A DNA stretch of 64,000 bases from Bacteroidota bacterium. Lineage in GTDB: Bacteria > Bacteroidota > Bacteroidia > Bacteroidales > Porphyromonadaceae. The stretch covers positions 61,899-125,898 of the forward strand of contig JAEWWU010000018.1 in NCBI GenBank assembly GCA_023396255.1. Reading direction: 5' to 3'. Below are positions 3,995 through 64,000 of this stretch, piece by piece. Within the stretch, counting starts at the first letter, position 1. Every line of letters starts with the position of its first letter. The notes beneath the pieces are model-generated. The model was not told the DNA's origin. It made no database searches and worked only from the letters and a program-made list of their open reading frames with translations. A program made the translations under genes and the position numbers.

Positions 3995-4149
3995 AGTGTT
4001 GTCAAAGGTACGGAAAAAGCAAAAAAATATTCGAATGGAGACAAACAAAGCGGTGCGTTTCAACTTTTCATCGAAACGCACCGCCCCTAACAACAACTCT
4101 TTGTAAGATCATCCTCCCACAAAGCGTTGAACTATTCCGGTTGGCCCTA

Positions 4150-5340
4150 TTACTTGATTACCCCTAGCTCTTTACCAACTTTGATAAAGGCAGCAATACA
4201 CTTATCCAAATGTTCGCGGTTGTGAGCTGCAGAAAGCTGTACTCGGATGCGTGCTTCTCCTTTGGGCACAACAGGATAATAGAATCCGGTCACATAGATA
4301 CCCTCTTCGAGCATACGGGCAGCATACTTTTGTGATAGGGGAGCATCATAGAGCATAACGGCGCAAATAGCACTTTGAGTGGGTTTAATGTCAAATCCGG
4401 CAGCCAACATCTTGGTGCGGAAATACTCTACGTTCTCCATCAAACGAGTGTGCAATTCATCAGACTCTTCCAACATCTTGAAGACTTCCAACCCGGCACC
4501 TACCACGGCAGGGGGTAAAGAGTTAGAGAACAAGTACGGACGAGAACGCTGGCGCAACATAGCAATCACTTCTTTGGGCCCCGTCGTAAAGCCTCCAACG
4601 GCACCACCAAAGGCCTTGCCCAAAGTGCCGGTATGGATATCTATACGATCGAAGCAATCAAATTGCTCAGCCACTCCGCGTCCGGTAGCACCCACTACAC
4701 CGGCAGAGTGACATTCGTCTACCATTACCATAGCATCATACTTTTCTGCCAAGGCACAGATCTTATCCATAGGAGCCACGTTACCGTCCATAGAGAAAAC
4801 TCCGTCCGTTACGATAATGCGATGACGCTGTGCCTGCGCTTCTTGAAGACATTTTTCCAACTCTTCCATATTGGCATTGGCATAACGATAGCGTTTAGCT
4901 TTGCACAAACGAACCCCATCAATAATGGATGCGTGGTTGAGGGCGTCACTGATAATGGCATCTTCTTCGGTAAAGAGAGGTTCAAAAACTCCCCCATTGG
5001 CATCGAAGCAAGCAGCATAAAGGATGGCATCTTCTTTATGAAAGTAGCGAGCAATGGCCTGCTCCAACTGTTTGTGAATATCTTGAGTTCCACAAATAAA
5101 ACGTACGGAGCTCATTCCGTAGCCGTGGCTGTCCATTGCGGCTTTGGCAGCTTTTATCAAGCGAGGATTGTCGGATAACCCCAAATAGTTATTGGCACAG
5201 AAGTTAAGAACTTCCTGTCCCTGATTCACCTTAATATCCGCAGTTTGCGGAGTAATAATAATGCGCTCCTCTTTGTAAAGCCCGGCTTGACGAATGTTTT
5301 CCAATTCATCTGCCAAGAATTGCTTAATCCCTTTGTACAT
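4150..5340 (-). CDS. kbl: Glycine C-acetyltransferase (2-amino-3-ketobutyrate CoA ligase)
   Basis: Long stretches are near-identical to E. coli Kbl as I remember it (AIISDALNHASIIDGVRLCKAKRYRYAN, RPYLFSNSLPPAVV, YPVVPKGEARIRVQLSAAH). The PLP lysine sits in the TLGKAFGG context. Confidence 0.9.
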   Translation of the reverse strand: MYKGIKQFLADELENIRQAGLYKEERIIITPQTADIKVNQGQEVLNFCANNYLGLSDNPRLIKAAKAAMDSHGYGMSSVRFICGTQDIHKQLEQAIARYFHKEDAILYAACFDANGGVFEPLFTEEDAIISDALNHASIIDGVRLCKAKRYRYANANMEELEKCLQEAQAQRHRIIVTDGVFSMDGNVAPMDKICALAEKYDAMVMVDECHSAGVVGATGRGVAEQFDCFDRIDIHTGTLGKAFGGAVGGFTTGPKEVIAMLRQRSRPYLFSNSLPPAVVGAGLEVFKMLEESDELHTRLMENVEYFRTKMLAAGFDIKPTQSAICAVMLYDAPLSQKYAARMLEEGIYVTGFYYPVVPKGEARIRVQLSAAHNREHLDKCIAAFIKVGKELGVIK

Positions 5341-5373
5341 ATGATTATTTTTTGATTGATTGATGTTTCTATT

Positions 5374-5802
5374 TCACTTGTCGTCTCCCTCGGCCTGAGG
5401 CTCCTCTTGGGGTCTGAAAGCAGTGATGCCGGAAACGACCAAAAGGTTGTACCACTTGATCAACTTTTTGATATCCGTAATATAAACTCGTTCTCTATCA
5501 TAAGAGGGCAATATCTCTGCCATAAGAGCCGAGTACGCAGCATCATCTTTAAGAGAGGCGAGGTCTACCTCCGCAGTTCCTTTCAGAGCCGATAGGCTTT
5601 CCAAAACTTCGTATAGAGGTATGTCCTCCTCGTTGGTAAATATCGAAATATCTCCCAAAGAAACCACTCTATCGGAGGCATATACGGGCATACGACGTTT
5701 ATTCTTGGGGTCTAAGGCTTCTACGATAAGGCTGTTTTTGGTACGGCTAACCAAACGAAACAAGCCGGGTTTACCGGATACGGATAAAATTTCTTTGAGC
5801 AT
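5374..5802 (-). CDS. Conserved Bacteroidetes hypothetical protein (DUF5606-like)
   Basis: 142 aa, MLKEILSVSGKPGLFRLVSRTKNSLIVEAL... The family assignment is from memory. It lies 33 nt upstream of kbl on the same strand. Confidence 0.55.
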   Translation of the reverse strand: MLKEILSVSGKPGLFRLVSRTKNSLIVEALDPKNKRRMPVYASDRVVSLGDISIFTNEEDIPLYEVLESLSALKGTAEVDLASLKDDAAYSALMAEILPSYDRERVYITDIKKLIKWYNLLVVSGITAFRPQEEPQAEGDDK

Positions 5803-5967: not shown

Positions 5968-6000
5968 TCTCCCCGAACACCTTTTTAGCATTCGGGGAGA
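5968..6000 (-). terminator. Terminator hairpin after the TonB-receptor operon
   Basis: A 10-bp perfect stem (tctccccgaa / ttcggggaga) is followed on the minus strand by ttgtttg. It lies 38 nt after the stop at 6038. Confidence 0.55.
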
Positions 6001-6037
6001 CTCAATTCGGGAAAACGTTGTCTATAGAACCTAAAGA

Positions 6038-8491: not shown

Positions 8492-8555
8492 TTGCATTAT
8501 TATTAAAGAGTAAATAAACTTTGCGTAAAATCTCTCACATTTCACATTCGTTCCT

Positions 8556-10124
8556 TTAGAAAAAGAACTCTATTCCCCAATTCAAGTAGTGATTATTTTG
8601 CGAAGCAATCCGAGTATTTTGCCATTGCGTAAAAACGGAGGCAACAAATTTGCCCATTACAGAACGGCTGCAACGCACTCCTATCTGCCAAGAGTAAGTT
8701 CGTTTCGAGTTGTGCTCAAAGGAGCGAACCAATTCGTCAACCTGCGCTTGTAATGAGTGTTTTGTCGGATGTACATCGAGGATATTTTTTCGCGAATGAG
8801 GTTGAGACAGACATCCCTCCATTTCTGCTTCCAAAGCCCAATGGTCAAAAGTTCGACCTATTCTTGCCAAAACAGACTCTTTCAACACCGCTATACCTAC
8901 GGATTCCTGCGGATGAAGCAATCTCCGCTGGAGAGTCTCATAATCGACTCTGCACGATAACAAACCATACCAAGAGCCTCGCATATACTCAGCCATAAAC
9001 TCGGATTTGATATGGTGCAAAAGCGATTCGTAGAGAGGCAACGACGCTATTCGAGGATAAATCCCGGCAGCAGCATCACCATACATAAATACAGTTCCTA
9101 CCCTACGCTCACAACGGTAGCTTCCCTTTATGCCAAGGATTGCCTCTTGTGAGAGTCGAGTCTGCAAACCAGCTTCCGAAATGATTGTTCCGGTATGCAT
9201 CTGCGCCATAGAAAGTTGATTGAGATTCTTCAATATCTTATCGAACGCGAACAACTGCCAACGAACTCCTGCAAAAAAGGAAGTCTTGCGCTTTCTATCC
9301 ACAGGCAACAGATCCAACCCAGCTGAATAGAGATACCCCTTGTAAAAATTCTCCGTATTGTTTCCCCTAAATCGATAATAATCTTGAGACAATCCCAAGA
9401 AGTGATACTCCGAAGGAACTCCCAACTCGCTCATAAAAAGGACCTCGTTGGATTGCTTATAAGTACCTGCCGTCCCATAAACGATCACTGCACAATGATC
9501 TCCCAAGACGAAACCCACAGAGGGAGAAAGTTGAAAACAGGTTGTTAAGTTCTTTGGTCTGGGATCCACATAAAAGGAAGAAATAACAGCCTTGTACGAG
9601 GCATTGATCCCCCAGTTCCACAAATTATACTTACGTGCAAATCCTCCCGAAAAAAAATACGACTCACGATTGCGGTTCTGTTGGGCTACCGTATCTCCCA
9701 TAACAAACGGAGCTAAGAGCTGATAGTCATCTGAATGATTGAGAGCTACCCCACCCAACAAAGCGTTGCCATAACCGGCCTTTGTAAAAGCAGCAATAGC
9801 CCCTTTTTTCAAAAAAGTTTCTGCACTCGTTTGCCACTCTCTCTTACTCGTTCCCTCTTGTATGTACCGAGGATTCTGTTTCTGATAATCGTCCTTCCCC
9901 ACCGTTATTGCTCCGTGCGAAGGCAACACGCTGTACAACAAATGAGTTGCATACTGCTCTTGAGCAAAAGGGATTGCAAAGTTCGATACTGCTGCTCTTT
10001 TAAGACGCAACGTGTACAGTAGCGAATCTCCGGAAAAGAAGCTACTCTCTCCCCCCTTTGCATAGTTAAAATGTACCACACAAAGCCCCCACACAATCAA
10101 AAACAGAACGAAGATCTTTCTCAT
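8556..10124 (-). CDS. Outer-membrane beta-barrel protein (DUF6850-like)
   Basis: Has a signal peptide (MRKIFVLFLIVWGLCVV), alternating amphipathic strands rich in Y/G/S, and a C-terminal ..NWGIEFFF (terminal aromatic residue typical of OMPs). Family name is from memory. Confidence 0.6.
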   Translation of the reverse strand: MRKIFVLFLIVWGLCVVHFNYAKGGESSFFSGDSLLYTLRLKRAAVSNFAIPFAQEQYATHLLYSVLPSHGAITVGKDDYQKQNPRYIQEGTSKREWQTSAETFLKKGAIAAFTKAGYGNALLGGVALNHSDDYQLLAPFVMGDTVAQQNRNRESYFFSGGFARKYNLWNWGINASYKAVISSFYVDPRPKNLTTCFQLSPSVGFVLGDHCAVIVYGTAGTYKQSNEVLFMSELGVPSEYHFLGLSQDYYRFRGNNTENFYKGYLYSAGLDLLPVDRKRKTSFFAGVRWQLFAFDKILKNLNQLSMAQMHTGTIISEAGLQTRLSQEAILGIKGSYRCERRVGTVFMYGDAAAGIYPRIASLPLYESLLHHIKSEFMAEYMRGSWYGLLSCRVDYETLQRRLLHPQESVGIAVLKESVLARIGRTFDHWALEAEMEGCLSQPHSRKNILDVHPTKHSLQAQVDELVRSFEHNSKRTYSWQIGVRCSRSVMGKFVASVFTQWQNTRIASQNNHYLNWGIEFFF

Positions 10125-10138
10125 AGTCTGTGTTTCAA

Positions 10139-11506
10139 CTACTCTACGGGCATTACACCATCGTGGGTCTGTTGAGAGGCCTTTGTTCCGCCTGCATCTG
10201 TCGCCGTTTTTTGCCGTTCCACGATGGAAGGGATTACCATAGGATTAAAATCTTTTGTTGAGTTATTGGTATCTTGCAATACGATACACCCATCCGACAA
10301 TATCTCTTTTACCTTACGCCTAACACTATGGAAGTAGCGGTCTTTCTGCTTGTCTACCGTACCACAGTTGGTCCACCCCGCATCAATGGTCGGAGGGAGT
10401 ATATTCCATACCACTTTGGACGCTACACTACAATTCACCCCATCCAAAATCCACTCGTTGGGCAAACGATATGTTTGGCGTTCCATAGGATAGTCTCCGG
10501 TGGGGGCACTTATCGTATATCGAAAAGTGTAGCGATATTCTTTCAAGTACTCTTGCTTGGACACCGGTATTCTGGCAATGGCATAAGAGCGAAACCCTCT
10601 ATTGTGCAAAACCCAAATGCTTTTGGTATAGCAGTACCACTTGTCCATATTGGGAACCAAAGGGCTATCGAAATCTGTGTGCGCCGGAGCCGAGGAAATA
10701 TCGTACCACTCCATATCCGCTTTGGAGAGATCGAACGAATTCGGATTTACCGCTTTATGGTCAATGCCTGTATCACAAATAACGAAATCTCCACCGGGAG
10801 GCACCGGGTGCTCGGAACCGCTGCCCGGAACTACATAGATAGCCTCCACGCTAAAATCCGTCATCTGCAAATCGGGGGTATAGTTGTACTTCTGCACGGA
10901 AGTAAATGTAGACTCCGTGAGAGCAATTCCATCAGCGTACAACATCCTATCCGTATTATTGTGCAGTACAACGTAGTTATCCCCGTGGTACTGTTTCCCC
11001 GATGGATAAAGAGTACCGGTAAAGAAGATTTCCCTGATGACAAAATCCCCTACCTCTTTGATCACAAAAGCCTCCAGGGACACTTTCTGCCCTCCTTTTT
11101 GCGAGCTTATTTGTACCGCCTCTCTCTGCCCCTTGAGATTGACTTTTACCGAAGTGTTTGGAGTTGTGCAAACCGCCTCGAGAGAGACGTTGTACAGTCC
11201 GGGTAAGAGTTGTATATCTTTCCCTGAAGAAGATGTATTGCTCTCGCCTGTCGAAACATTATAAAACGAGTACAGGGCTTTCTCTATCACTGCCCCTTTG
11301 ACCTCCGGTGGCAAAACGAGTTCTACGGATACCGAAACCGGAATAGGTGGCGTAGGCTTATCCGGAACACACCCAACCCCAACAAGGCAAGATACGGATA
11401 CAAGAAAAACGAGAGCTCTGCATACTCCAAAACCGGTCTCCTTCGCTCGAAATACTTTCAACCTGCGTAGGGATATATTCTTTTCAATTCGTATAAGTCT
11501 GTTCAT
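10139..11506 (-). CDS. Surface lipoprotein partner of the TonB-dependent receptor (DUF4876-like)
   Basis: Lipobox LVGVGC. It lies 6 nt downstream of the receptor gene. Family name is from memory of the TBDT-DUF4876-DUF6850 gene order in Bacteroidales. Confidence 0.6.
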   Translation of the reverse strand: MNRLIRIEKNISLRRLKVFRAKETGFGVCRALVFLVSVSCLVGVGCVPDKPTPPIPVSVSVELVLPPEVKGAVIEKALYSFYNVSTGESNTSSSGKDIQLLPGLYNVSLEAVCTTPNTSVKVNLKGQREAVQISSQKGGQKVSLEAFVIKEVGDFVIREIFFTGTLYPSGKQYHGDNYVVLHNNTDRMLYADGIALTESTFTSVQKYNYTPDLQMTDFSVEAIYVVPGSGSEHPVPPGGDFVICDTGIDHKAVNPNSFDLSKADMEWYDISSAPAHTDFDSPLVPNMDKWYCYTKSIWVLHNRGFRSYAIARIPVSKQEYLKEYRYTFRYTISAPTGDYPMERQTYRLPNEWILDGVNCSVASKVVWNILPPTIDAGWTNCGTVDKQKDRYFHSVRRKVKEILSDGCIVLQDTNNSTKDFNPMVIPSIVERQKTATDAGGTKASQQTHDGVMPVE

Positions 11507-46686: not shown

Positions 46687-47568
46687 ATGAATCAAGAACA
46701 ATTGCAACAGATGAAGCAAGCTCCCGGCTTTATAGGAGCGTTGGATCAGAGTGGGGGCTCTACGCCCAAAGCGCTCAAAGCTTATGGAATAGAACCGGAA
46801 GAATACAAGTCCGAAGAGGAGATGTTCGAACTAATCCACCAAATGCGTGCCCGAATGATTACCTCTCCCGCTTTTGCAACCAAAAAAATCATCGGTGTAA
46901 TTCTCTTTGAACGCACTATGCGTGGCGAAATAGAAGGAATCCCCACAGCCGACTTCCTTTGGCAAAAAAGACAAATTGTTCCTTTCTTAAAGGTTGATAA
47001 GGGACTGCAAGAAGAAGCCAATGGGGTACAATTGATGAAGCCGTTCCCCGAGTTGGGCAAGCTGTGTGACGAAGCGGTTGGTTACAATGTTTTTGGGACC
47101 AAGATGCGTAGCGTTATCAAACAAGCAAATGAGCAGGGAATACGCGACATTGTAGAGCAACAATTCCAGTGGGGTCGTGAAATCTTGTCTCACGGTTTGG
47201 TGCCCATTTTGGAACCCGAGGTAGACATCAAATGTCCGGACAAGGCCAAGGCTGAAGAAATTCTTAAGCGTGAATTGTTGGCTCAACTTGACAAGCAAAC
47301 TCAACCCGTGATGCTAAAAATAACGATTCCCACCGTGGCCAACTTCTACAAAGAAATCATCGAGCATCCTATGATGTTGCGTGTGGTTGCCCTTTCGGGA
47401 GGATATAGCCGCGAAGAAGCCAATGAACTTTTGAGCCGCAACCACGGCATCATAGCTTCGTTTTCAAGAGCATTGGCAGAAGGCTTGTCTGCCAAGCAAA
47501 GCGATGCCGAGTTCAACGCTGTCTTAGAAAAGTCAGTAGACGGCGTTTACCAAGCTTCTATTCAATAA
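46687..47568 (+). CDS. Class I fructose-bisphosphate aldolase
   Basis: [30 protein letters not shown] is a typical bacterial class I FBA N-terminus, and the Schiff-base lysine region is FLKVDKG. The first ATG is at 46687. Confidence 0.85.
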
Positions 47569-47588: not shown

Positions 47589-47630
47589 AAAGCCTCCGAG
47601 AATCGACGATTCTCGGAGGCTTTGTTTTTT
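47589..47630 (+). terminator. Rho-independent terminator of the aldolase gene
   Basis: A 15-bp perfect stem (agcctccgagaatcg / cgattctcggaggct) followed by ttgtttttt. Confidence 0.8.
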
Positions 47631-47926: not shown

Positions 47927-48100
47927 TCAACGCAAAGGATCCAACTCTTCATCCTCTGCGGATTCCCATTCTTTAACATTTCCTTGTATAGATACCCCAA
48001 CCAAAAGAGTCTCCAGCATCGATAGCTTAACGACCTCTACCCTTGGGGCTTCGTAAGGTTTACCACTCATAAAGTTTCCTTTTATATTTGATTTTCTCAT
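47927..48100 (-). CDS. Small ORF A (57 aa from ATG 48100, or 47 aa from ATG 48070), paralog of small ORFs B and C
   Basis: My own translation: (MRKSNIKGNF)MSGKPYEAPRVEVVKLSMLETLLVGVSIQGNVKEWESAEDEELDPLR. It is below the 60-aa ORF-track cutoff and starts 7 nt (or 37 nt) after the stop of the 48108-49100 gene. It shares the K-x-Y-x-x-P-x-V-E-x-h-x-L/I motif with B and C. Confidence 0.55.
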   Translation of the reverse strand: MRKSNIKGNFMSGKPYEAPRVEVVKLSMLETLLVGVSIQGNVKEWESAEDEELDPLR

Positions 48101-48107: not shown

Positions 48108-49100
48108 TCAGATTTTTAGTTTCAAGTATTTGGTTTGTCCGTCTTTAACGGTTTTAACATTGTATCTTGCCTCCCTTGGTGCATAGTAAACCATATCGTA
48201 ATAACTTACCGTAAGTGGGATGGACTCAGGTTTAGCCTCTCCCAAATACCCCAACCACAAGAAAATAAATTTGTTGGACAAAGATTGACTTTGGATACTC
48301 TCTGGCATCGTCAGGTTTGTTGAAGGGGAGCTATAATATTCAGAGAAATAGGGTAATGTTCCTTCTTTGGGTACCTGCGTTATATCCAAACAAACCATAT
48401 TCGATAAAGATGTCGTTTCGGTTGGTTTTATTCCCAATACACTAATCTCTGCCCCACTGGTATTTTCGACCTGCACTCTTAAGAGAAATCCTCGTGGACA
48501 AAATTCGTCCCTTATAGAGGCCTCATCTTGAGCATTAAATGAGAGCTTAGACCATACCGTAGTATAGGGGATATTAAGATATTGGTTACTGCCTCCAATG
48601 TTCAATGTTTTATTTGCTGGATCTACCAAAAAAGGCTGGTAACCATACCCATACTTGTTTTGATAAAGATTCATTCCTCCAACAATGACACAAGCTAGAT
48701 ATTCTTTGTCTTTGTTATACCCGAGCATATCAAAGGTACTTTTATGACACAGTTTGGTTACGCCGTTAATCAACTTTGCTTCCAACGTAATATCCTGTTT
48801 GTGCACAGTTTCCCCTCCATTCTTCTCGCGAATCAAGAGATGACCGTCTACAGTCTCTCCAACATTGAGTTTCAATTTGGGGAAATACTTTTGATCTAAA
48901 TCAGCATCCAACTGAATTGCCGACATCTTCAATTGGGGATTGTCATTGGCAATTCCTGCTTCAAAATCAAGCGATATTCTTGTTGATTTTTCTTGAGGAG
49001 TTAATTGATCTCCACGCTTTCCGCATCCGGAAAGCAAACTAAGGACACACAAAAGTATGCCCATACGACCGACTGTACGGTCAAATAAAGTAATCTTCAT
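48108..49100 (-). CDS. Lipoprotein of unknown function
   Basis: Lipobox LSLLSGC after a hydrophobic signal. 330 aa. I recognise no family. Confidence 0.65.
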   Translation of the reverse strand: MKITLFDRTVGRMGILLCVLSLLSGCGKRGDQLTPQEKSTRISLDFEAGIANDNPQLKMSAIQLDADLDQKYFPKLKLNVGETVDGHLLIREKNGGETVHKQDITLEAKLINGVTKLCHKSTFDMLGYNKDKEYLACVIVGGMNLYQNKYGYGYQPFLVDPANKTLNIGGSNQYLNIPYTTVWSKLSFNAQDEASIRDEFCPRGFLLRVQVENTSGAEISVLGIKPTETTSLSNMVCLDITQVPKEGTLPYFSEYYSSPSTNLTMPESIQSQSLSNKFIFLWLGYLGEAKPESIPLTVSYYDMVYYAPREARYNVKTVKDGQTKYLKLKI

Positions 49101-54756: not shown

Positions 54757-56661
54757 TTAGCGAACCACAACCTTTGAGGCAAAGCTACCGAAGTCGTTGT
54801 TTACACGCACTACATACACTCCATTGGGAAGTTGGTATGTGGTTGAGTTGGTGACGAAACGACCACTCATATCATACACCTCAAAGCTATTGATCAAACC
54901 TTGGATAGACACATAACCGTTGTTGATGAAAACACGAGGCATATCTTCCGTAGAGATGGTTGTTGTGGCAAGATCTTTTCCATAACCCACATTGGTAGAG
55001 AAAAATATCTCACGCTCGGCAGCTGTTTTGGTAGACTTGAGTTCTCTTCCCGCAAAGAGAACGACCTTCAAATTTTCCTTCTTCCAATTAGGTTTAATCT
55101 CCTTGGCAGGGAATGTTATGGTAAATTCTTTGCCATTCACAGTAGCTTTATCTCCAAATTCCGAAGAGAGGAATACACGAGCCACCCCTTGGTGTACATA
55201 TTTGCCCGTTGCTCCGGCTTGTTTTTGTGCATCGATGTTGTCCTCAGTTACAATAGCTGTGATGTAGAGGAAGTTGGGGTCCATACCCTCTACCAATGTA
55301 CCTTTGGCTGTTACAATGAGTCGGTCATTTTCCACCTTTTGTTCTACGGCTGTGAATTTCCCAAATTGGAGACTTTCGCCCACTTTGGCAAGAAGAGCAG
55401 TCTCGCTAATGCTTCTGCTTCCTGCAAGCGTGCCGTCCCCGCCAAACATCATACGATCTACACAGAAAGCAGGAGCAAACGATCCGTCAACAAAGTAATA
55501 GGGGAGAAGATTTTCTGACTTTTTCAATGTCAGGAAGTCTGTGTGGAAACCGGCGTGGTGCTGTACATAGCTCAGGGCATAGCCTTTTTCCTTAAGGGCT
55601 TTCATATATTGCTCGAAAACAATCTTTCCTGCGGGGCATTGACCGCAAGACTCTGTGGTGAAGTGTTCAAAGAGCAGAGTTTCTTTGAGAAAAGGACCAT
55701 TCTCCGGAAGAATAGTGTAGGGAACAACAAGAGGAGTATCTTTGGAAGTATGGTCTTTACCATTGATTTTGGGGAGGGCGAATGTGAGGTTACCCATTCC
55801 ATTCTCGGGGTAAGTAACTTCCACAGAAAGAGCGAGTGTTCTTCCGGGTTGGATCGTTGTATTCTTTTCACTTACAACGGCATTTGCATTAGGAAAAGCA
55901 TAGCTAATATCCGCTTTCTCAATGGCGTTGAGACCAATATTGCGTACCGTTATTGCTACATTTTTCTTTGTGTTTTCTTTTTCTTTGGTGCGTGCATCGC
56001 TCGCTACAATGAGTGCATAGTCGTTTAAGAGGTCCTTCTTGTCCTCTATGTCTGCAAAGATCATGAGGGAACCGAAGATCAGATTTTCGTCCACCAAGTT
56101 ACCGATGTTGGCAAGTGTTTGACCCTTTGCAACGTCTGCTTTGAGCTGGGCAAGGTAGTTGGCGGGGCGCAATGACTGCTTTCCGTCGAACGCCAAAACA
56201 TAGGCCTCACCCCCCACTTTAGCGTGGATTTGGTAACCTACATAATAACTTTTCCCGGCCTTAAAGGTGAAAGGAGTGGTAAGGGCAACTGTATTGTCTC
56301 CTTCTACGATGTCTGCACTTTGCACATAGAGTACTTTTTTGGTTGCTGCATCCATAACCACTATGGCTCCTTTCTCCTTTACATCTTTTCCGAATGTTCT
56401 AAAAGAGATTCCTTTCAGTACATTACCTCCCATCGGGGGGATTTCGATAAGCGCGAGCAGCGTAGATGCGGTGTGACCGTTACCGATGCCTTGAGCCTTG
56501 TCCGAATAGCGATCTGCATAACCGAAGCCTTTGAGCCCTACTGCTCTAAGGGACGATTGAGGTGCTCTGCTGTGCAAACTGCGCAACCCTTGAGCATTCA
56601 TACTAACCAAACCGGTAACCAACAGGGTTACCAAAAAGTGAAAAAATCTTTTTATTTTCAT
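54757..56661 (-). CDS. Omp28-related/thioredoxin-like surface protein with T9SS CTD
   Basis: Signal FFHFLVTLLVTGLVSMNAQG, an FEHFTTESCGQCPAG motif (as in Omp28-related proteins, from memory), and tail ..NGVYVVRVNNDFGSFASKVVVR. ATG at 56661. Confidence 0.65.
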   Translation of the reverse strand: MKIKRFFHFLVTLLVTGLVSMNAQGLRSLHSRAPQSSLRAVGLKGFGYADRYSDKAQGIGNGHTASTLLALIEIPPMGGNVLKGISFRTFGKDVKEKGAIVVMDAATKKVLYVQSADIVEGDNTVALTTPFTFKAGKSYYVGYQIHAKVGGEAYVLAFDGKQSLRPANYLAQLKADVAKGQTLANIGNLVDENLIFGSLMIFADIEDKKDLLNDYALIVASDARTKEKENTKKNVAITVRNIGLNAIEKADISYAFPNANAVVSEKNTTIQPGRTLALSVEVTYPENGMGNLTFALPKINGKDHTSKDTPLVVPYTILPENGPFLKETLLFEHFTTESCGQCPAGKIVFEQYMKALKEKGYALSYVQHHAGFHTDFLTLKKSENLLPYYFVDGSFAPAFCVDRMMFGGDGTLAGSRSISETALLAKVGESLQFGKFTAVEQKVENDRLIVTAKGTLVEGMDPNFLYITAIVTEDNIDAQKQAGATGKYVHQGVARVFLSSEFGDKATVNGKEFTITFPAKEIKPNWKKENLKVVLFAGRELKSTKTAAEREIFFSTNVGYGKDLATTTISTEDMPRVFINNGYVSIQGLINSFEVYDMSGRFVTNSTTYQLPNGVYVVRVNNDFGSFASKVVVR

Positions 56662-56984
56662 AAGAAACTGTTTTTTAATTCTGTAAATCATTGTTTTATC
56701 TCTTTACCCAAAGAGTACATCTCCTCTTTGCTTCTGCAAGGTGGGAATCCCGAACAAAAAATCCTCTTTTGGCTTATTATATATCTACGAGTATATAAAA
56801 GACTTCTCATAACGAATCTTTCTTTTTTGGGAAGTCAGCTTCCCTATGGTTTTCAAAAAAAGCTGAGTCTGTTGTGGAGATTGTCTATTCCCGAAGCCGC
56901 CAAGAGAGGAGAGGTTATTTTCCCTCCCTTTGTGGAGGGGAAATAAGAGTTTGACGATTATGTAAACCATAAAAATTAGCCAAA

Positions 56985-57947
56985 TCACAACCTATCGTAA
57001 TGTTTGAAGTAGAAGTCATCGGGATTTTTCCCCACATCGTTGTTAAGCATAATAGCGTGCAACACTCCGCAAATTCCGGGAGCTCGCCTATCGCGATTCA
57101 AGTCCCAGTGGGTCAGTCCTTCCGGCTCGTCGCCCAAACCATCAAACTGATACCTAAATCCCCTCTTTTGTTGAGAGTGAGCAATCCTGCGAATGTAGAA
57201 AGGGATACCGTTTGATAAGGTGTTAGGAACCTGAAAGACAGAAATGCCTCCTCTGTCATTGCACCATTTCTCCCTAACACCTGTGTAGTAGCCATTGTTC
57301 ACGTGCAAGTGGTTGTCCATATCGAAACAGCCCCCTTGCATATGTTCGAGCGAGAGCAACTCTCGCTTCTCGTTCATCGGCACAAGATAGGTCTTGAAAG
57401 AAAGGAAACCGATTTCCTCGCGACTTATTTTTGCAAAATCAATGTCATAAACAAAGAATGGAGAATAGTCAGACTTTACAAAACGGTCACTGACGTGCTT
57501 GTCAGAAGTGTACAGCCGGCCGTCCTTCGGATTGATGGCACACCACCCGATGGTTTTGAAAACTTTACCATCGGGACGCAGAAGCACCTGCTTGACAACA
57601 GGTCTAAGATTCCTTGCAGAAAAGACTTGAATGTACGGTGCACCGTCTCCCGTGACAGGAACAAACAGATACCCCCTGTGATAGTCTATATCGCCAAAGT
57701 GATAAGGGATGGTTTTGCCGCGGGGCTGTGGCAAGGTGCAACGCAATATGCCTTCTTCCAGATTCGCACAGGTAACCTTGTTGCCAAGACGATGCGTAAT
57801 TGGAAACTTCCACAAAACACCGATTTCTCGTCCCGGCACTCCGTTTTGAGTAAAAAACCAGTTATTGTCATCGTGGCACACACCATTGAGTTCGTGGCTC
57901 CAACCGTTCTCGCGATTTCTCGGATAATTCTTGATGTACTTGTACAT
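56985..57947 (-). CDS. Hypothetical protein with no signal peptide and no family recognised
   Basis: A 320-aa uninterrupted ORF with an ATG start and ordinary composition. W/H/G/D-rich repeated beta-like segments suggest a propeller-like fold, which is inference only. Confidence 0.55.
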   Translation of the reverse strand: MYKYIKNYPRNRENGWSHELNGVCHDDNNWFFTQNGVPGREIGVLWKFPITHRLGNKVTCANLEEGILRCTLPQPRGKTIPYHFGDIDYHRGYLFVPVTGDGAPYIQVFSARNLRPVVKQVLLRPDGKVFKTIGWCAINPKDGRLYTSDKHVSDRFVKSDYSPFFVYDIDFAKISREEIGFLSFKTYLVPMNEKRELLSLEHMQGGCFDMDNHLHVNNGYYTGVREKWCNDRGGISVFQVPNTLSNGIPFYIRRIAHSQQKRGFRYQFDGLGDEPEGLTHWDLNRDRRAPGICGVLHAIMLNNDVGKNPDDFYFKHYDRL

Positions 57948-58213
57948 AGCTTTTTCCTTTCTCTTGATGAGGTTAAATAATTATTTGGACTATACTTTTC
58001 TCTCAATACTACGATGTTCGAGGAATCAAATGAACCTAATTGTCTCGTGATTCCGAGGGGGGAGTTCCTTTGCCGCAACTTCGTCTTCGTTAGGAGAGAA
58101 GCCGCATACGATCTTCGGCAAACCGAGTGACTTCATCCAACTTGGACGGCTGCACTTGCGATTGCTTTTGGGATACCTCTGTCATAGCCGTTATTTTTTT
58201 GTTTCGTGTGCGG

Positions 58214-58221
58214 CAAAGTTA
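58214..58221 (-). promoter_or_regulatory. -7 promoter box (TAACTTTG on the minus strand)
   Basis: Perfect TAnnTTTG, 29 nt upstream of a 31-codon ORF (58090-58185) and 267 nt upstream of the 320-aa gene. Confidence 0.4.
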
Positions 58222-58262
58222 CGAGCCACACAAGTCCTGCTTACTGTTCTAATCGGACAAAA

Positions 58263-58314
58263 AACTGTTCTAAACTGACATTTTGCATTTATATCAACTG
58301 TTCTAAACTGACAT
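58263..58314. repeat. Two perfect 19-bp direct repeats AACTGTTCTAAACTGACAT spaced 33 bp, plus a partial copy CTGTTCTAA at 58244
   Basis: Read directly at 58263-58281 and 58296-58314, immediately upstream (minus-strand sense) of the -7 box at 58214. Confidence 0.85.
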
Positions 58315-58749
58315 ATTTCTTCCGCAACCAACTGATTATCAAAATGAATCGCAAACACCTCCTTCAAATTTCTCAAAATGATGTTTTGAGAACCAAAGGA
58401 GTCGAATTGTTACGTTATTCCGATTGGTAAAACCCTTCAAAGTGGAGACTAAATATTTTCCTAAGGATGGATTTTGTGAATAGGAAGAGTGAGAACCATC
58501 CGAAATAATTAATAAGTATTTTGGTACACTCAAAAGCTCTTGTATTTTTGCCAATAGAAAAAAATACATAAGAAGCACCCGCAACCTTGACGGAGAGAGG
58601 TATACTTCTCCCAAAAGAATTATCGACCACTATAAAAAGTACGTTGTATTACTCAACGATCTGCAATTGCCCTCAAACAGAGGGTATTTGTCATATTCGT
58701 GCTTGGGAAATGGAACAACGGCTAAAAAGCAACGAATACAACGAACCCT

Positions 58750-61602
58750 ATGACTCCACGCAAACCCTCTTTCGCAAATCTTTGGCACCTATGGAATAAA
58801 CATTGCCTCCTTGTTATAAGTGTACTGGTGGCATTCATTTCCCTCCTATCGGTTTCGTGCAGCAAACCGCCCGTGTCTTTCTCCCCTGAAGAACGCAAAG
58901 CAGTGGATAGCCTTGTTCGCTCCGTTCGTAATGTGGATTCGCTTGCCCTACTGCAAAAGCGGTTCGAAAGAGAGGGCAATCGGTTGGGCAGCATTGTTGC
59001 ACTGAGAGAATGGGGCAAAGCTCTACGCAACGAAAGCAGGTTCGATGAGGCTCTGAATGCCCACAGCGAGGGGCTTAGGCAGGCAGAGGCCATCGGAGAT
59101 ACTTTGGAATGGATACAAGCACTCAACAATATGGGTACGGACTACCGAAGATTGGGCGTGTTCGATGTGGCACAAGAATATCACTACCAAGCATATACGA
59201 TCAGCTTGGAGTGTGCAGACACCTCTTACGGTGCTAAGAAAAACCGTGTGGTATCGCTCAACGGATTGGGCAATGTCTATATGACGCTGAGAAACTATGC
59301 GCGGGCAGACAGTGCTTTTCGGTTGGCTCTGGTGGGCGAACAGGAATTGCACAGTACAACGGGACAAGCCATCAACTTCGCCAATATGGGATCGATCTTT
59401 GAGCAACAGGGGAAAACCGATTCGGCTTGGGTATATTACCGTCGCTCTATGGCATTCAATCAGGAGGCGGGCAACAAACTCGGCATATCGCTCTGCCACA
59501 CCTACTTCGGGTCGCTCTACGAAAAAGCAAAAGAATACGACAAAGCAACACAAGAGTACGAAACAGCATACTCCCTTATGCAAGCCTCAAAAGACGAATG
59601 GCACGTTTTGAACACACTCGTTGCACTCGCCGGCATCTACTACGCCACCGGCAATGATCCGAAGGCTTTGGATTACCTCGGCAAAGCCAAAGCGATAGCA
59701 GAGCAAATCAAATCGAGAGAACACTTGGCAGACATCCACACCTTATATTATAAGCTCCACAAAAGACAAGGAGACAAAGGGGCTGCTCTCTCTGCCTACG
59801 AAGTTGCCACAGCAATGCAAGACAGCATATTGGATGTGGAAAAGATAAATCGCATCCAAAATACGAGTCTCAACATTGAGCGAAGCCGTAAAGAAAGGCT
59901 GATGAGTGCCGCACAGCTCAAATTGGAAGAAGAACGAACGTGGCGCCGTGTAGGTTACGGTATCTTTGCTCTTCTTTTGTTACTCCTTACCGGATTCGTG
60001 ACAATGCAACTCTACATTCAACGCTTGCGGGTACGCAACCACCGTGCCTTGAAACAGATGTCTGCGTTGCGTGAGAATTTCTTTACCAATATTACCCACG
60101 AATTTCGCACTCCTCTTACCGTAATACTTGGGCTAAGTCGCGATGTACAAGAGGCGACGGAGTGCCCTCCGGAAATCAAAGACAAAGTACAGACCATTGA
60201 GAGGCAAGGCAACGGATTGCTCACGCTCATTAACCAACTCTTGGATATATCAAAGGTGAAGTCGGCAGTAGGAGACCCCGATTGGTATAACGGAAACATC
60301 ACAATATACCTCACAATGATTGTGGAAAGCTACCGTGAGTATGCTCGTAATCAGGGCATTGACCTGCAATTTCTTTCAAAAGGAAGTGTGGAGATGGACT
60401 TTGTACCCGACTACGTAAAAAAGGTGATGAACAACCTGCTTTCCAACGCATTTAAGTTCACCCCCAAGTATGGCAAAGTGAGCGTGATTGTATGGAGCGA
60501 AGACAATCAACTGCTTATAGATGTAATGGATACAGGTAAAGGAATGAGCAGGGAAGTTCTCTCCCGCATCTTTGAGCCTTTCTATCAAGCCGAGGGCGAT
60601 ACTCGAAACATTGGCACGGGAGTGGGTTTGGCACTCGTCAAGCAGGTTATAGACTCCGTAGGAGGCTGCATCAAAGTGGAAAGCACAGAAAACAGAGGAA
60701 CCACTTTTCACATCAGTGTACCCATTCGCAACCAATGCAAGCGGCAATTGACCGATCAAGAGGAGGCTAACAACCCTCTGCTTCCGGAAATAGGAGCAAT
60801 ACCCTTGGACAGCGAAAAAGAGGACAACGAATGCCGTTTGCTTATCATCGAAGACAACCAAGATATTGCCACTTACATCGGCTCGCTATTCTCCGGCTCC
60901 TATGCCATCTCTTATGCCTCCAATGGAGAAGAGGGATTGGAAAAGACATTGGATCTTGTTCCCGACCTAATCATCACCGATTTGATGATGCCCGGTATGG
61001 ACGGATTGGAGGTATGCCGACAGATTCGCAGCAACGAGATTGTAAACCACATTCCCATCATCGTGGTAACGGCAAAGATTACCGAAGAGGAGCGCATCAA
61101 GGGGATACAAGCCGGTGCAGATGCCTATCTTTCCAAACCCTTTAGCAGTGAAGAGCTGCGCACACGGGTCGAGAAACTGCTCGACCGCCATCGCCGCCTG
61201 CGGCACAAATTTGGAGAGAAAGCCGATGCCCCTACCAAAGACAAAGAAGAGTCTCTTACAGAAGCAGAGCGTCGTTTTCTTACCAAAACGGTGGACTTTA
61301 TCTATATCCTCCTGAACAAACGGCAACTGGAGGTAAACACCTTGGCTGAAAAACTCTGTATGAGCCCCAGACAGTTTCATCGAAAAATTATCGCCCTGAC
61401 AGGCGATACACCCGCCTCCTATATGCTGAAGATAAAGATGCAGAAGGCTCGTTTATTACTCGAGGGTAGCCCCGAACTGAAGATAGAAGACATCGCCGAA
61501 CGCTGTGGCTTTGATCATTCTTCCAGTTTCTACCACGCATTTAGGAAGGTCTACGGCATTACACCCACGGAATACAGACGAAGCTGCGCCGGAAAAGGGT
61601 AA
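58750..61602 (+). CDS. Hybrid sensor kinase/response regulator with periplasmic TPR sensor and C-terminal AraC-type HTH
   Basis: TM1, then TPR-like repeats, then TM2 (GIFALLLLLLTGFV). HisKA (FFTNITHEFRTPLT), HATPase (DTGKGM.., GTGVGLALV), REC (LLIIEDN..DLIITDLMMPGMDG..K), and HTH_AraC (IEDIAERCGFDHSSSFYHAFRKVYGITPTEYR). Confidence 0.9.
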   Translation: MTPRKPSFANLWHLWNKHCLLVISVLVAFISLLSVSCSKPPVSFSPEERKAVDSLVRSVRNVDSLALLQKRFEREGNRLGSIVALREWGKALRNESRFDEALNAHSEGLRQAEAIGDTLEWIQALNNMGTDYRRLGVFDVAQEYHYQAYTISLECADTSYGAKKNRVVSLNGLGNVYMTLRNYARADSAFRLALVGEQELHSTTGQAINFANMGSIFEQQGKTDSAWVYYRRSMAFNQEAGNKLGISLCHTYFGSLYEKAKEYDKATQEYETAYSLMQASKDEWHVLNTLVALAGIYYATGNDPKALDYLGKAKAIAEQIKSREHLADIHTLYYKLHKRQGDKGAALSAYEVATAMQDSILDVEKINRIQNTSLNIERSRKERLMSAAQLKLEEERTWRRVGYGIFALLLLLLTGFVTMQLYIQRLRVRNHRALKQMSALRENFFTNITHEFRTPLTVILGLSRDVQEATECPPEIKDKVQTIERQGNGLLTLINQLLDISKVKSAVGDPDWYNGNITIYLTMIVESYREYARNQGIDLQFLSKGSVEMDFVPDYVKKVMNNLLSNAFKFTPKYGKVSVIVWSEDNQLLIDVMDTGKGMSREVLSRIFEPFYQAEGDTRNIGTGVGLALVKQVIDSVGGCIKVESTENRGTTFHISVPIRNQCKRQLTDQEEANNPLLPEIGAIPLDSEKEDNECRLLIIEDNQDIATYIGSLFSGSYAISYASNGEEGLEKTLDLVPDLIITDLMMPGMDGLEVCRQIRSNEIVNHIPIIVVTAKITEEERIKGIQAGADAYLSKPFSSEELRTRVEKLLDRHRRLRHKFGEKADAPTKDKEESLTEAERRFLTKTVDFIYILLNKRQLEVNTLAEKLCMSPRQFHRKIIALTGDTPASYMLKIKMQKARLLLEGSPELKIEDIAERCGFDHSSSFYHAFRKVYGITPTEYRRSCAGKG

Positions 61603-61981: not shown

Positions 61982-62164
61982 ATGAGTAACAGAAACGAAA
62001 TTATCTGCAACTGCAACCAGATTACGCGAGGAGAGATAGAGGATGCCATTCGCAACAAGAACCTCAAAACGGTAGACGAAGTAGGCGAAACCGTCGATGC
62101 CGGTACGGTTTGCGGAGCTTGTCAAGACGACATTCAAGAAATACTCGATACCCTCAACGCTTAA
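61982..62164 (+). CDS. BFD-like [2Fe-2S]-binding domain protein
   Basis: 60 aa with the C-x-C ... C-x-x-C pattern (IICNCNQITRGEI...GTVCGACQDDI) typical of bacterioferritin-associated ferredoxin domains. Confidence 0.8.
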   Translation: MSNRNEIICNCNQITRGEIEDAIRNKNLKTVDEVGETVDAGTVCGACQDDIQEILDTLNA

Positions 62165-62170
62165 ACACAA

Positions 62171-62208
62171 AATCCGCCTGTCAAAGACATTGTCCCGACA
62201 GGCGGATT
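62171..62208. terminator. Bidirectional terminator hairpin
   Basis: A 12-bp perfect stem (aatccgcctgtc / gacaggcggatt). The minus-strand reading is followed by ttttgtgttt. It lies between the + bfd-like gene and minus-strand small ORF B. Confidence 0.65.
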
Positions 62209-62298
62209 CTCTATTTGGAGGTAAACACCTCCCCACCTAACTTCTACAAAAAAAACTCGTCGTGGCCAATACCACAAACAAGGCACTCAACTTCACCA

Positions 62299-62445
62299 TC
62301 AACCCGTTGGGTCGCTACCATCATCCTCTCCAATAGGGATTTTAGGACCATCGTCGATAGACCACGAAGAAGGCGCTGCAATCATACTCTCGAGTTCAAG
62401 AGAGAGGCTCTCCACACCGGGAATCGAATAGACTTTCTTTTCCAT
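62299..62445 (-). CDS. Small ORF B (48 aa), paralog of small ORFs A and C
   Basis: My own translation: MEKKVYSIPGVESLSLELESMIAAPSSWSIDDGPKIPIGEDDGSDPTG. A -7-like box (TACCTTTA, minus strand, 62500-62507) lies 55 nt upstream. Confidence 0.5.
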   Translation of the reverse strand: MEKKVYSIPGVESLSLELESMIAAPSSWSIDDGPKIPIGEDDGSDPTG

Positions 62446-62757
62446 ACTATTGTTCTTTCTTGTGCAATAAATGCTAAGTCGTTTTTGCCATTAGCGGGGT
62501 AAAGGTAGTTCCATTTGCCCCCTTCTCACATCTTTTTGATTAGATTAACAGAAAAGCAACAAAAATAGAAGTCTTTTTAACGCAATAGAGATCAAAATGC
62601 GAGAATTATATTGCTTCCAAATATTTAAGTCCCTCCCCTATTCGTGGCACAAAGCCAATCAAAATCTCACTCCCTTGAGATGGGCAGAGGATGCTTCGGT
62701 ACAATCCAAAACATCCTCTGCATTCGGAAAATGCAATCTTCCTTACTAAGATGCTAT

Positions 62758-62916
62758 TTAGTTCGATACTCCGGGACCGGAACCGGTATCGTCTATTATA
62801 TCTCCTGACTCCGGATACTTGTTTCCCAAATCATACGAACCACTACTCCCATTCACCACGTTCTTCATCTCTATGGAAACGTGTTCCACAGTCGGTCGCA
62901 CATACGTCTTTTTCAT
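62758..62916 (-). CDS. Small ORF C (52 aa), paralog of small ORFs A and B
   Basis: My own translation: MKKTYVRPTVEHVSIEMKNVVNGSSGSYDLGNKYPESGDIIDDTGSGPGVSN. It starts 27 nt after the stop (62944) of the T9SS cargo gene. Confidence 0.55.
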   Translation of the reverse strand: MKKTYVRPTVEHVSIEMKNVVNGSSGSYDLGNKYPESGDIIDDTGSGPGVSN

Positions 62917-62943
62917 AACATTCTTCTTTTTTTATTTCTGTTC

Positions 62944-64000
62944 TTAGCGTACAAAATATTTCTTCCCATTCACAACGTAAACCCCTTCCGGAAGCCCGTC
63001 AAGATTAGAGCTACCTTGGCGCACCACTTGACCATTGATATCAAAAACAATGTCTGCATAGACATCCCCCTCTTGGTTCCTCTCTGTGTTGGGAAGGACT
63101 TCCGCTATGGCTGTGGGGGCTTGCTGCTCCTTGCTTGGGAACATTACGCCGGCTCTCTTCCCGGCTCCGTTATCCTTGCTCATCAGAACGCAAGCGGTGT
63201 ATTTGGTCCATCTTCCTCCCTCTTTTATCCGTTTGTAGAAGCCGGCACCGAATTGATTATTACCTGAATAGTAGTAATAACAAGGTGTGGAAAAAGTGCG
63301 TTCTTGGTACGTACCTTTGAAAGTGTACTTCACTCCGTCCAAGGAGAAAGACACTTCTTGCAAACTTTCTGCTTTTTCTTCCTGCTTTACGATGCCCGTT
63401 ATTGTAGAATAGGTACCGATCCCCTGCGATGTTCCGGTTCTGATTCCCGGGTGTATCATATAGGGGTGGTGAGCTTTTGTTTCCATTACATTGGTCTTAA
63501 ACTCCAAGACAATAGCTCCGTCTGAGTTCTTCTTTACTCCCGAAAACTCTACCACCTCGCAGCTTGCTCCATAGGCACTCTCAATCTGTTCGCGGGTCAT
63601 ATTGAACGGAAAACACAATGTGTACCACTTATCTTCTACTCGCACCTCATCTTTCCATATGGAACTGTCTGCCTGCTCCATAGTCAGCATAAAGTTGTTC
63701 CAACCGGCATACTCTCCTTGATTGTTATTAAACTTTCCAAAGTCTTGCACTGGCCAGATATTTCCATTATACCTTACAAACTTCTTCTCCCACTCTTGAG
63801 TTGTTCCATTTTTAAGGTTTTTAATATGTTGGTTTACATATTTCTCATAAGCTGATTTGGGGTAATGCAGCACGGTAGGCATCGTATAACCCGTGGCTTG
63901 GTTCTTAATGGCATCCCTCTGCACCTCTTCGCCTTGACTTGCCCCCGAGTAGGTGTAAGCGTAGGTATTATTTGGCTGAAAAGCGTGATCCATACACTTG
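62944..64000 (-). CDS. Secreted protein with T9SS CTD (5' end outside the window)
   Basis: The frame stays open past the listed ATG at 63993 to the window edge. Tail ..DINGQVVRQGSSNLDGLPEGVYVVNGKKYFVR is CTD-like. Confidence 0.65.
   Translation of the reverse strand, partial: KCMDHAFQPNNTYAYTYSGASQGEEVQRDAIKNQATGYTMPTVLHYPKSAYEKYVNQHIKNLKNGTTQEWEKKFVRYNGNIWPVQDFGKFNNNQGEYAGWNNFMLTMEQADSSIWKDEVRVEDKWYTLCFPFNMTREQIESAYGASCEVVEFSGVKKNSDGAIVLEFKTNVMETKAHHPYMIHPGIRTGTSQGIGTYSTITGIVKQEEKAESLQEVSFSLDGVKYTFKGTYQERTFSTPCYYYYSGNNQFGAGFYKRIKEGGRWTKYTACVLMSKDNGAGKRAGVMFPSKEQQAPTAIAEVLPNTERNQEGDVYADIVFDINGQVVRQGSSNLDGLPEGVYVVNGKKYFVR

Follow-up and report, generated by a model that had tools for sequence, protein, structure and literature searches.

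A family of small open reading frames found behind genes with a compact C-terminal domain in Bacteroidales

Three small open reading frames in the window

We analysed a stretch of 64,000 nucleotides (nt) from a Bacteroidota bacterium (GenBank assembly GCA_023396255.1, contig JAEWWU010000018.1, positions 61,899 to 125,898 of the forward strand; hereafter the window), in which an initial annotation, made from the letters alone, had pointed to three short open reading frames (ORFs), A, B and C. The ORF list contains all three where that annotation had placed them, C beginning 27 nt past the stop codon of a gene (hereafter the cargo gene) whose product appears to carry a C-terminal domain (CTD) of T9SS (type IX secretion system) type. 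The features concerned are the following.

62758..62916, minus strand: ORF C, 52 residues (MKKTYVRPTVEHVSIEM...), the family member next to the cargo gene, which it follows after 27 nt
62299..62445, minus strand: ORF B, 48 residues (MEKKVYSIPGVESLSLELESMIAAPSSWSIDDGPKIPIGEDDGSDPTG), second family member, in tandem with C
47927..48100, minus strand: ORF A, 57 residues, or 47 residues from the Met codon at 48070 (MSGKPYEAPRVEVVKLSM...), behind a lipoprotein gene
62944..64000, minus strand: 3' part of the cargo gene upstream of C, a 649-residue protein with BspA-type leucine-rich repeats (LRR_5) in relatives
62947-63126, minus strand: putative compact T9SS-type CTD of that cargo, its last ~60 residues, ending ...GVYVVNGKKYFVR

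The second Met codon of ORF A (48070) agrees with the start position of the family described below. The N-terminal motif that the three products had been said to share exceeds chance expectation. In the six-frame translation of the window the strict pattern K.Y..P.VE has three matches, each at the N-terminus of A, B or C, where mononucleotide shuffles of the window give a mean of 0.1. When 16,463 small ORF segments of the window were compared with a hidden Markov model (HMM) of the family, only C (E 6.8e-13), B (E 1.8e-11) and A (E 1.3e-9) matched. The tails of the three products are free of Cys and acidic, as had been read from the translations; the net charges are -5, -7 and -2 for A, B and C, respectively.

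Orthologues of ORF C in related Porphyromonas contigs keep the reading frame, including across a 3-nt indel, and orthologues of ORF A were found as well (P0003, P0004 and P0006). The exact ORF B protein is present on 46 contigs. Its distant relatives P0010, P0012 and P0014 conserve the motif APSxW(S/K)(V/I)D(D/G)GPx(I/M)PI, and the gene of P0014, which comes from another organism, directly follows one whose product has a CTD-type tail. Within the species ORF B is nearly invariant (1 of 147 columns variable), and ORF C is a hotspot of variation, with 20% variable columns at all codon positions and 6-7% in the flanks. The 53-residue ORF C orthologue P0008 is named 'cytochrome C' by NCBI. Since it contains neither Cys nor a haem-binding motif, this name is an annotation error.

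ORF C and the cargo gene lie in the same frame, the sequence between them being 62917-62946. Readthrough or frameshifting from the cargo into C was considered and rejected, as there are two stop codons in the 27-nt gap. Since the gaps at other loci are not multiples of three, the shared frame is regarded as coincidental.

An undescribed family of 46-74 residues

An exhaustive profile search of 1.84 billion representatives returned 14 proteins of 48-74 residues at E<1e-3. A second search seeded with those 14 returned 371 clusters at E<=1, all of 46-74 residues, a lower bound on the size of the family. A word-indexed search with the alignment of A, B and C returned close Porphyromonas orthologues only. 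A further 43 loci came from species-representative genomes scanned with the MKKTYIAP subset; having been found by this pattern, they are biased to Prevotella-type members. The carriers are Porphyromonas, Prevotella, Alloprevotella, Prevotellamassilia, oral Phocaeicola and uncultured metagenome-assembled genomes of Bacteroidaceae, Prevotellaceae or Bacteroidales, the last from rumen, ruminant gut and other animal guts. A cultured carrier is Prevotellamassilia timonensis An873, in which the peptide WP_235385318.1 is encoded next to WP_235385319.1. Some genomes contain several paralogues.

The sequence plan is M-K-K-x-Y-x-x-P-x-(V/M/I)-E-V-I, a near-invariant Ser ~20 residues past the Tyr, and then a Cys-free tail rich in Gly, Asp, Ser, Glu and Trp. 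Among 164 unique sequences the Tyr is found in 161 (at residue 5 in 128); the Pro at +3 from it is present in all 164 by construction of the search. The residue at +5 is V/M/I/A in 159 (V/I/A/L in 118, Met in 42), Glu stands at +6 in 139, and a Ser is found at +17 to +22 in 161. The tail has a mean length of 31 residues with 14% Gly, 12% Asp, 10% Ser, 9% Glu, 5.6% Trp and 0% Cys, and its mean net charge is -4.6. An aromatic residue is found in the last six positions of 144 of these sequences. Many Prevotella subfamilies end in RRGxWGNLW(D/E), FGNIWDSQW or PNLWDQGW, an ending absent from A, B and C.

The annotation had recognised no family and had described a conserved N-terminal part followed by a variable acidic C-terminal part, and both statements hold for the wider set. 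Pfam and NCBIfam gave no relevant match at E<=10 to A, B or C or to 10 other, diverse members, and the PDB contained no sequence that matched the family profile. The 371 clusters are named 'hypothetical protein', apart from the one misnomer 'cytochrome C', and none has a Pfam domain. No fusion to a larger protein was found among the profile-search matches. Literature searches on the motif and on T9SS small proteins yielded no account of the family, a review of T9SS effectors included.

Evidence for coding

The reading frames are conserved in related genomes, as the initial annotation had expected of true genes, and they are under purifying selection. The ratio of nonsynonymous to synonymous substitutions (dN/dS; pooled Nei-Gojobori estimate in a 14-member subfamily) was 0.14 in the N-terminal 25 codons, 0.33 in the middle region and 0.27 in the C-terminal region. 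The middle region is the most variable, its proportion of nonsynonymous differences (pN) being 0.26 versus 0.05 for the N-terminal part. Among 23 diverse Prevotella members the N-terminal pN was 0.34, with the synonymous proportion (pS) saturated at 0.69. The 30 nt before the starts contain 52% A, versus 25% at background ATG codons of the same loci. An A-rich start region is the context of Shine-Dalgarno-independent initiation typical of Bacteroidetes.

ORFs this short fall under many annotation cut-offs, and it might be argued that they are chance reading frames, or a conserved non-coding element that happens to be translated. This explanation is refuted, and we attach virtually no weight to it. 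Frame, start position and length class are common to hundreds of clusters, the frames are kept through indels, and dN/dS is well below 1 with synonymous sites saturated. In addition, the start regions are A-rich, and a search of Rfam found no family overlapping the ORFs.

Linkage of the family to upstream cargo genes

In each context that was viewed by eye, the peptide gene stood right behind a large gene on the same strand. The genes next to the peptides were then analysed with two HMMs, one of the peptide family and the other built on the C-terminal 60 residues of 31 upstream proteins, which were applied to 52 non-redundant sources with crude ORF maps as gene maps. These sources contained 59 peptides, 55 of which had a readable upstream neighbour. 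Fifty of the 55 neighbours were genes on the same strand with a match to the compact CTD at the extreme C-terminus. The gap between cargo and peptide had a median of 67.5 nt and a range of 15-498 nt. In the reverse direction, 48 of 55 compact-CTD genes with enough downstream sequence have a peptide. Since the loci were picked by the peptide alone, the identity of the upstream gene is unbiased, and the reverse statistic is biased by ascertainment. Arrays of the form [cargo][peptide][cargo][peptide] were observed at L015, L025, L048, L052, L061 and L072/73. Two of the five misses are artefactual or borderline: at L074 a GTG start (tail ...KGIYIVNGKKVYVK) was missed in the gene map, and at L054 the tail is a variant one.

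The initial annotation had associated the small ORFs with genes of secreted or surface proteins. This association is strongly upheld for the family at large. In the window, A is located behind the gene of a lipoprotein that lacks a CTD, and B forms a separate unit behind C rather than next to a cargo gene. Taken together, A, B and C are very probably genuine genes and belong to an undescribed family with members of 46-74 residues. As a rule, one member stands directly behind a gene for a compact-CTD protein with a Sec signal, on the same strand, and these pairs are often arranged in arrays.

It is worth noting that there are other possible interpretations of this linkage. The peptide may be a passenger of gene-family expansion, with an unrelated function, that was copied together with the 3' end of duplicating surface-protein genes. 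Cargo paralogues with near-identical CTD ends do occur within genomes. The CTD type and the peptide C-terminal type also travel together across genomes; for example, tails ending ...VLNAKKGVFVVNGKVIVK pair with GGQLGRE peptides, and tails ending ...VQGAQKGIFIVNGKKVVR with xVQLGRE peptides. The linkage is, however, kept between Porphyromonas and Prevotella at ~25-35% peptide identity, and it is kept behind unrelated passenger domains with gaps of 15 to ~340 nt when the peptide is directly behind the cargo. Such persistence across genera, domains and gaps is not expected from hitch-hiking alone, and the selection is seen at the protein level. We therefore regard a mere passenger as improbable.

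The position of the ORFs would also suit a cis-acting role, in which translation or the nascent chain sets the fate of the cargo mRNA by protecting its 3' end, by termination or by anti-termination that reads into the next cargo gene. A variant would be a report on export or translation status, like that of an arrest peptide, via the Trp-rich C-terminus beside the stop codon. The ORF sits close behind the cargo on the 3' side of its transcript, at gaps as small as 15-40 nt, and in the arrays it also precedes the next cargo gene. Many subfamilies have C-terminal motifs at or near the stop (RRGxWGNLW, PNLWDQGW), the aromatic residue in the last six positions being nearly general, and hairpins follow C and B. 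On the other hand, it is the N-terminus that is best conserved, under purifying selection across genera, which a purely cis role would not require, and the C-terminal Trp motif is absent from the three ORFs of the window. The gene that comes next is convergent or far away at many loci, the three of the window among them, which leaves nothing downstream to be regulated. Monitoring arrest peptides are encoded upstream of the regulated gene and have an export signal; the family peptides, unlike them, have neither feature. Only a slight probability would thus be left to a regulatory ORF.

After clustering, 335 neighbour proteins from the 52 sources (up to 7 kb from the peptides) included no recurrent family other than a 514-529-residue protein with AAA-ATPase_like and PDDEXK_9 domains. 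The gene for this protein is found near peptides in five loci of different genomes (L021, L024, L028, L031; e.g. L024:6296-7840) and is probably not a partner but a mobile or selfish gene that is dispersed.

Two further loci bear on the pairing. At L044 a cargo ORF of 1839 residues (244-5763) ends inside its own CTD (...EGTTDIEHSEIRNQK), and an intact peptide gene (5998-6162) follows 237 nt on; the cargo is probably a frameshifted pseudogene whose peptide has been retained. At L074 a gene on the minus strand (8087-10564) encodes an 826-residue cargo with a T9SS tail of canonical length (...GTYIVKVFTDAADMGKKVMVK) and is followed by no peptide, whereas the compact-tail gene in L074 has one. This single case hints at a restriction of the peptide to the compact CTD class.

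The compact C-terminal domain of the cargo proteins

The passenger parts of the cargo proteins are diverse: BspA-type LRR_5, DUF285/LRR, Exo_endo_phos, a weak match to CBM26, or no recognisable domain. By a crude heuristic (not SignalP), 46 of 50 complete cargo proteins have a signal-peptide pattern, and the maximum 10-residue hydropathy of the signal peptide was 2.6-3.0 in three examples. The C-terminal module common to all of them has the consensus ...F.FG...T.I...(~12 residues)...YDL.GRRV....KG.YIVNGKKV..K, and a second tail variant ends ...QQGVNILQMSDGSVVKVVIK. The last 25 residues of the CTD tails have a net charge of +4.3, versus +0.3 for other genes.

Among 40 cargo tails the only recurrent family match was TIGR04183, with E<0.01 for 3 and E<1 for 9 of them, all under the 23-bit cut-off; PF18962 matched one of the 40 (E 0.13). 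The NCBI names of the cargo proteins are LRR, starch-binding or hypothetical, and none is named as a T9SS protein. The profile built from the C-terminal 60 residues of 31 tails, however, matched 7pq4, the CTD of Arg-gingipain (E 8e-4), and 5hfs, the CTD of RgpB (E 1.3e-3), as well as the C-terminal ends of 4kca, 8bbl and 7jvi. The gingipain match reaches the last residue; it covers the final ~28-29 profile positions only and contains three deletions of 16 residues in total. On the basis of this match the module is called a compact T9SS type-A-like CTD.

Like the canonical type-A CTD (TIGR04183 / PF18962), the module is C-terminal in proteins with a Sec signal and has the final motifs ...DhxGRRV...GhYhV...K.h.K. 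The compact tails are ~16 residues shorter than the RgpB CTD over the matched stretch, score under the curated cut-offs and have a T.I motif before that stretch. These comparisons support homology of the compact tail to the T9SS type-A CTD, and T9SS-dependent export of the compact-CTD cargo would seem to be reasonable.

The cargo upstream of C had been called a T9SS CTD protein at the outset, and this assignment is partly borne out. Its full-length orthologue matches LRR_5 (E 4e-35) and its tail matches the tail HMM (E 6.5e-13), a profile that reaches the gingipain CTDs. The match to TIGR04183 itself is weak (E 0.02-0.09; 0.023 for the tail) and lies under the curated cut-off. A homologue search with this tail returned one protein.

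A second cargo-like gene lies near the other end of the window (482-2065, minus strand). It encodes a 527-residue LRR_4 protein with a variant compact CTD (...QPGVNVVRLSNGSVKKVLCTE; E 2.5e-6 with the tail HMM and 1.6e-23 with the variant HMM) and has no family peptide downstream. The window therefore contains both a paired and an unpaired cargo gene.

Properties of the peptides and a possible partnership with the cargo tail

The peptides have no signal peptide and are not exported by Sec. The maximum 10-residue hydropathy is 1.89 for A, 1.10 for B and 0.41 for C, that is, a hydrophobic core is lacking in B and C and weak in A, and no lipobox Cys is present. AlphaFold2 models based on a 122-sequence family alignment gave pLDDT values of 90 and 86 at residues 1-20 and of 47-59 in the tail, with no secondary-structure element assigned and no globular fold. 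These models would suggest that the N-terminus is an extended amphipathic segment (alternating V-E-V-I-K-V) in need of a partner and that the tail is disordered. The model of the cargo tail had a pLDDT of 44.

We tentatively propose, with considerable reserve, that the peptide is a co-expressed cytoplasmic partner of the basic C-terminal tail of the cargo. One mRNA would serve for the cargo and for the peptide, whose translation would take place in the cytoplasm. Its conserved N-terminal ~20-25 residues would dock on a partner by beta-strand addition, and the disordered acidic tail (~-4.6) would mask or solubilise a basic surface. The most economical candidate for this partner would be the compact CTD encoded just upstream, which is strongly basic (+4.3 over its last 25 residues). 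The peptide might then act as a private, cis-encoded escort of the C-terminal secretion signal until Sec export, produced in step with the cargo. We infer the physical interaction of cargo and peptide, and its consequence, from this arrangement. Such a partnership would explain why the genes are syntenic and co-oriented, why the arrays have one peptide per cargo, why no signal peptide is present, why the charges are complementary and why no other gene is linked.

A stronger form of this proposal, which seems to us rather unlikely, is that the peptides are a new substrate-coupled component of the T9SS. Each compact-CTD cargo would then have a partner of ~50 residues of its own, the N-terminus of which would bind the shortened CTD, or a part of the machinery that reads the CTD, while its acidic tail would cover the basic signal.

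Several observations weigh against a partnership with the cargo tail. ORF A is located behind a lipoprotein without a CTD, and B has no cargo gene of its own. In Phocaeicola oris (L068:8001-10014) the order is reversed, the peptide lying 31 nt before a gene for a 611-residue lipoprotein with no recognisable domain. Six or seven compact-CTD genes, including the window gene 482-2065, have no peptide. The peptide subfamilies track the organism and not the CTD variant; at L015 two tail variants occur with similar peptides, so that any specificity is not specific to the tail variant. The many paralogues per genome and the variable middle region also fit a leader-plus-core peptide, which is discussed below, and the linkage could be due in part to co-duplication of the cargo 3' end with its flank. 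Finally, we know of no cytoplasmic substrate-specific chaperone on the Sec plus T9SS route, nor of a precedent for the cytoplasmic escort of a Sec/T9SS substrate.

We rejected another possibility, in which the peptide would provide the CTD with a strand in trans; it survives only within the stronger form of the proposal above. The idea arose because TYIAPxVEV resembles the YPNP strand that canonical CTDs have. A comparison of the peptide and cargo-tail profiles by hhalign showed no similarity, and a peptide without a signal peptide fails this role on topology.

Comparison with known systems and with leader-plus-core peptides

Effector-adjacent secretion chaperones offer a first comparison; those of class I of the type III secretion system, for example, are ~130 residues long. 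They resemble the family peptides in being small, acidic, free of a signal peptide, co-oriented beside the substrate gene and present in one copy per substrate. The family peptides differ from them in their size (~50 residues, three times smaller), in having no predicted globular fold and in the absence of sequence or structural homology.

The PorP/SprF proteins are partners of T9SS cargo with a type-B CTD. They are outer-membrane beta-barrels of ~300 residues with a signal peptide, whereas the family peptides are acidic, have ~50 residues and no signal peptide, and the cargo tail is type-A-like, not type B. The sole shared feature is the position of an accessory gene directly downstream of a T9SS cargo gene, as in the sprB-sprF operon (PMC10202324).

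The initial annotation had left two readings side by side, a leader-plus-core peptide and a small partner of a surface protein. In the former, which is the main rival of the proposed partnership, the family would be RiPP-like (ribosomally synthesised and post-translationally modified) or signalling peptides that mature in trans. A PqqD-like domain of the type of the RiPP recognition element (RRE) would bind the YxxPx(V/I/M) leader, a cut would be made near the near-invariant Ser, and the acidic Trp-containing part would be modified and/or exported by enzymes encoded elsewhere. Prochlorosins, with their scattered precursors and one enzyme, are a precedent for such an arrangement.

The leader/core plan itself is real in the family. 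Discrete lasso RREs recognise [Y/W]xxPx[L/V/I/F/A], and the precursors of linear polyphosphorylated peptides (LPP) have the form YxxPxVLxHQxIxFETxxS, with a conserved N-terminus and highly variable C-termini (PMC13381572). The family, including A, B and C (all Y..P.V), fits the lasso RRE motif, although this is a resemblance only, and it has the same plan as the LPP precursors: precursor size, an N-terminal YxxPx(V/I), a conserved stretch to a Ser and a highly variable C-terminal part. The concentration of variation in the middle region (pN 0.26 versus 0.05), the within-species variation of ORF C and the several paralogues per genome also fit this reading. The confidently modelled N-terminus without helix or strand fits the binding of a leader as an added beta-strand. 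A close match to the paeninodin precursor in particular was considered and dropped, as paeninodin-type leaders have WxxP (PMC13381572).

The expected machinery, however, was not found linked to the family. At more than 50 independent loci, the 6-10 kb around the peptides showed no recurrent RRE, cyclase, kinase, radical-SAM or ATP-grasp enzyme, no dedicated peptidase and no exporter, and none of them is among the 25 most frequent of the 76 Pfam families of the window. The precomputed Pfam lists of neighbouring genes likewise contained no RRE, exporter or enzyme of RiPP type. The annotation had likewise seen no modification enzyme in the window, and this is upheld by those 25 families and by the Pfam domains around A, B and C in the contigs of relatives. 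The family loci thus differ from lasso and LPP loci, which have a nearby RRE, peptidase (B2 or SipW-like SpI), cyclase, kinase and MsbA-type exporter. Lasso and LPP systems, moreover, are found in Bacillota or Actinomycetota and form a biosynthetic cluster, whereas the family is found in Bacteroidales and tied to T9SS cargo genes.

The sequences themselves also raise objections. For A, B, C and 10 members no curated model of a lasso precursor, a RiPP precursor or a double-glycine (GG) leader matched at E<=10. A, B and C have no Thr at -2 and no GG site, and in the family no conserved Thr precedes the conserved Ser. The C-terminal end is conserved within subfamilies as well (dN/dS 0.27), and YxxPxV is low in information and could be convergent. 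The near-obligate place behind a CTD cargo gene is left unexplained by a leader-plus-core peptide. We consider it rather doubtful that the peptides are of this kind. The interpretation given in the initial annotation is partly supported. The data do not decide between the two readings, and the partner reading explains the synteny better. The family fails membership as a lasso or LPP precursor, as a known chaperone and as PorP/SprF, and it resembles each of these in one respect.

Significance of the gene pair

The T9SS cargo of oral, gut and rumen Bacteroidales includes polysaccharide-degrading enzymes as well as major virulence factors, and recognition of the substrate is thought to need the CTD alone. 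The present analysis suggests that the peptides are an unrecognised partner of the T9SS export pathway. If so, the one-to-one pairing of a conserved small gene with a large and poorly annotated class of CTD proteins would introduce a new player in substrate handling, and a T9SS substrate class of Prevotella and Porphyromonas that annotation models miss would be handled by a two-gene module. If the peptides were instead leader-plus-core peptides, they would be a new natural-product or signalling family wired to surface-protein expression. In practice, the peptide HMM and the compact-CTD profile together flag many surface proteins missed by TIGR04183 and PF18962, and they give names to hundreds of small ORFs now called 'hypothetical'.

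Surroundings of the three ORFs in the window

The remaining features around A, B and C are as follows.

48108..49100, minus strand: lipoprotein gene upstream of A, 330 residues (predicted), lipobox LLSGC, without a CTD
62684..62721: inverted repeat with 16-nt arms and a 6-nt loop, 37 nt 3' of the stop codon of C
62560..62567, minus strand: TATTTTTG, the only exact TAnnTTTG between C and B, candidate promoter element of B (weak evidence)
62260..62277, minus strand: terminator-like hairpin with a T-run, 21 nt past the stop codon of B
62163..62216: inverted repeat with 20-nt arms, between B and the convergent Fer2_BFD gene

ORF A lies 7 nt (57-residue form) or 37 nt (47-residue form) from the stop codon of the upstream lipoprotein gene, and there is no room for a promoter of its own before either C or A. 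The 330-residue lipoprotein has no Pfam or NCBIfam family and is unrelated both to the LRR cargo and to the Phocaeicola lipoprotein. That it is a hidden CTD protein was rejected, since neither the general nor the variant tail profile matched it even at E<=10. The A-like peptide P0022, found elsewhere, follows a CTD cargo gene, and the lipoprotein context of A is therefore a lineage-specific exception.

The repeat at 62684..62721 possibly marks the end of a transcript of the cargo gene and C. The spacer between C and B is 312 nt long. A -7-like box of its own had been proposed for B, and the evidence for it is weak; the box at 62560-62567 is ~115 nt upstream of B, and the Bacteroidetes-type -7 box TAnnTTTG has 65 matches in the window versus 51 expected, which is no clear enrichment. 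We also considered whether B is the remnant of a lost cargo-peptide pair. This was rejected, as the spacer has neither a CTD-like translation nor DNA similarity to cargo 3' ends. On the other side of B, the repeat at 62163..62216 is likely a bidirectional terminator. The same is probable for a perfect 16-bp hairpin at 47589-47623, which is located between ORF A, ~300 nt past its stop codon, and a convergent aldolase-like gene (46687-47568).

A block of ~7 kb (54757-61602) encodes a 644-residue protein, a 320-residue protein and a 950-residue hybrid histidine kinase / response regulator / AraC protein. It is shared with L002 and absent from the strains L001 and L006, in which the Fer2_BFD gene adjoins the PNP_UDP_1 gene; the block is a strain-level indel.

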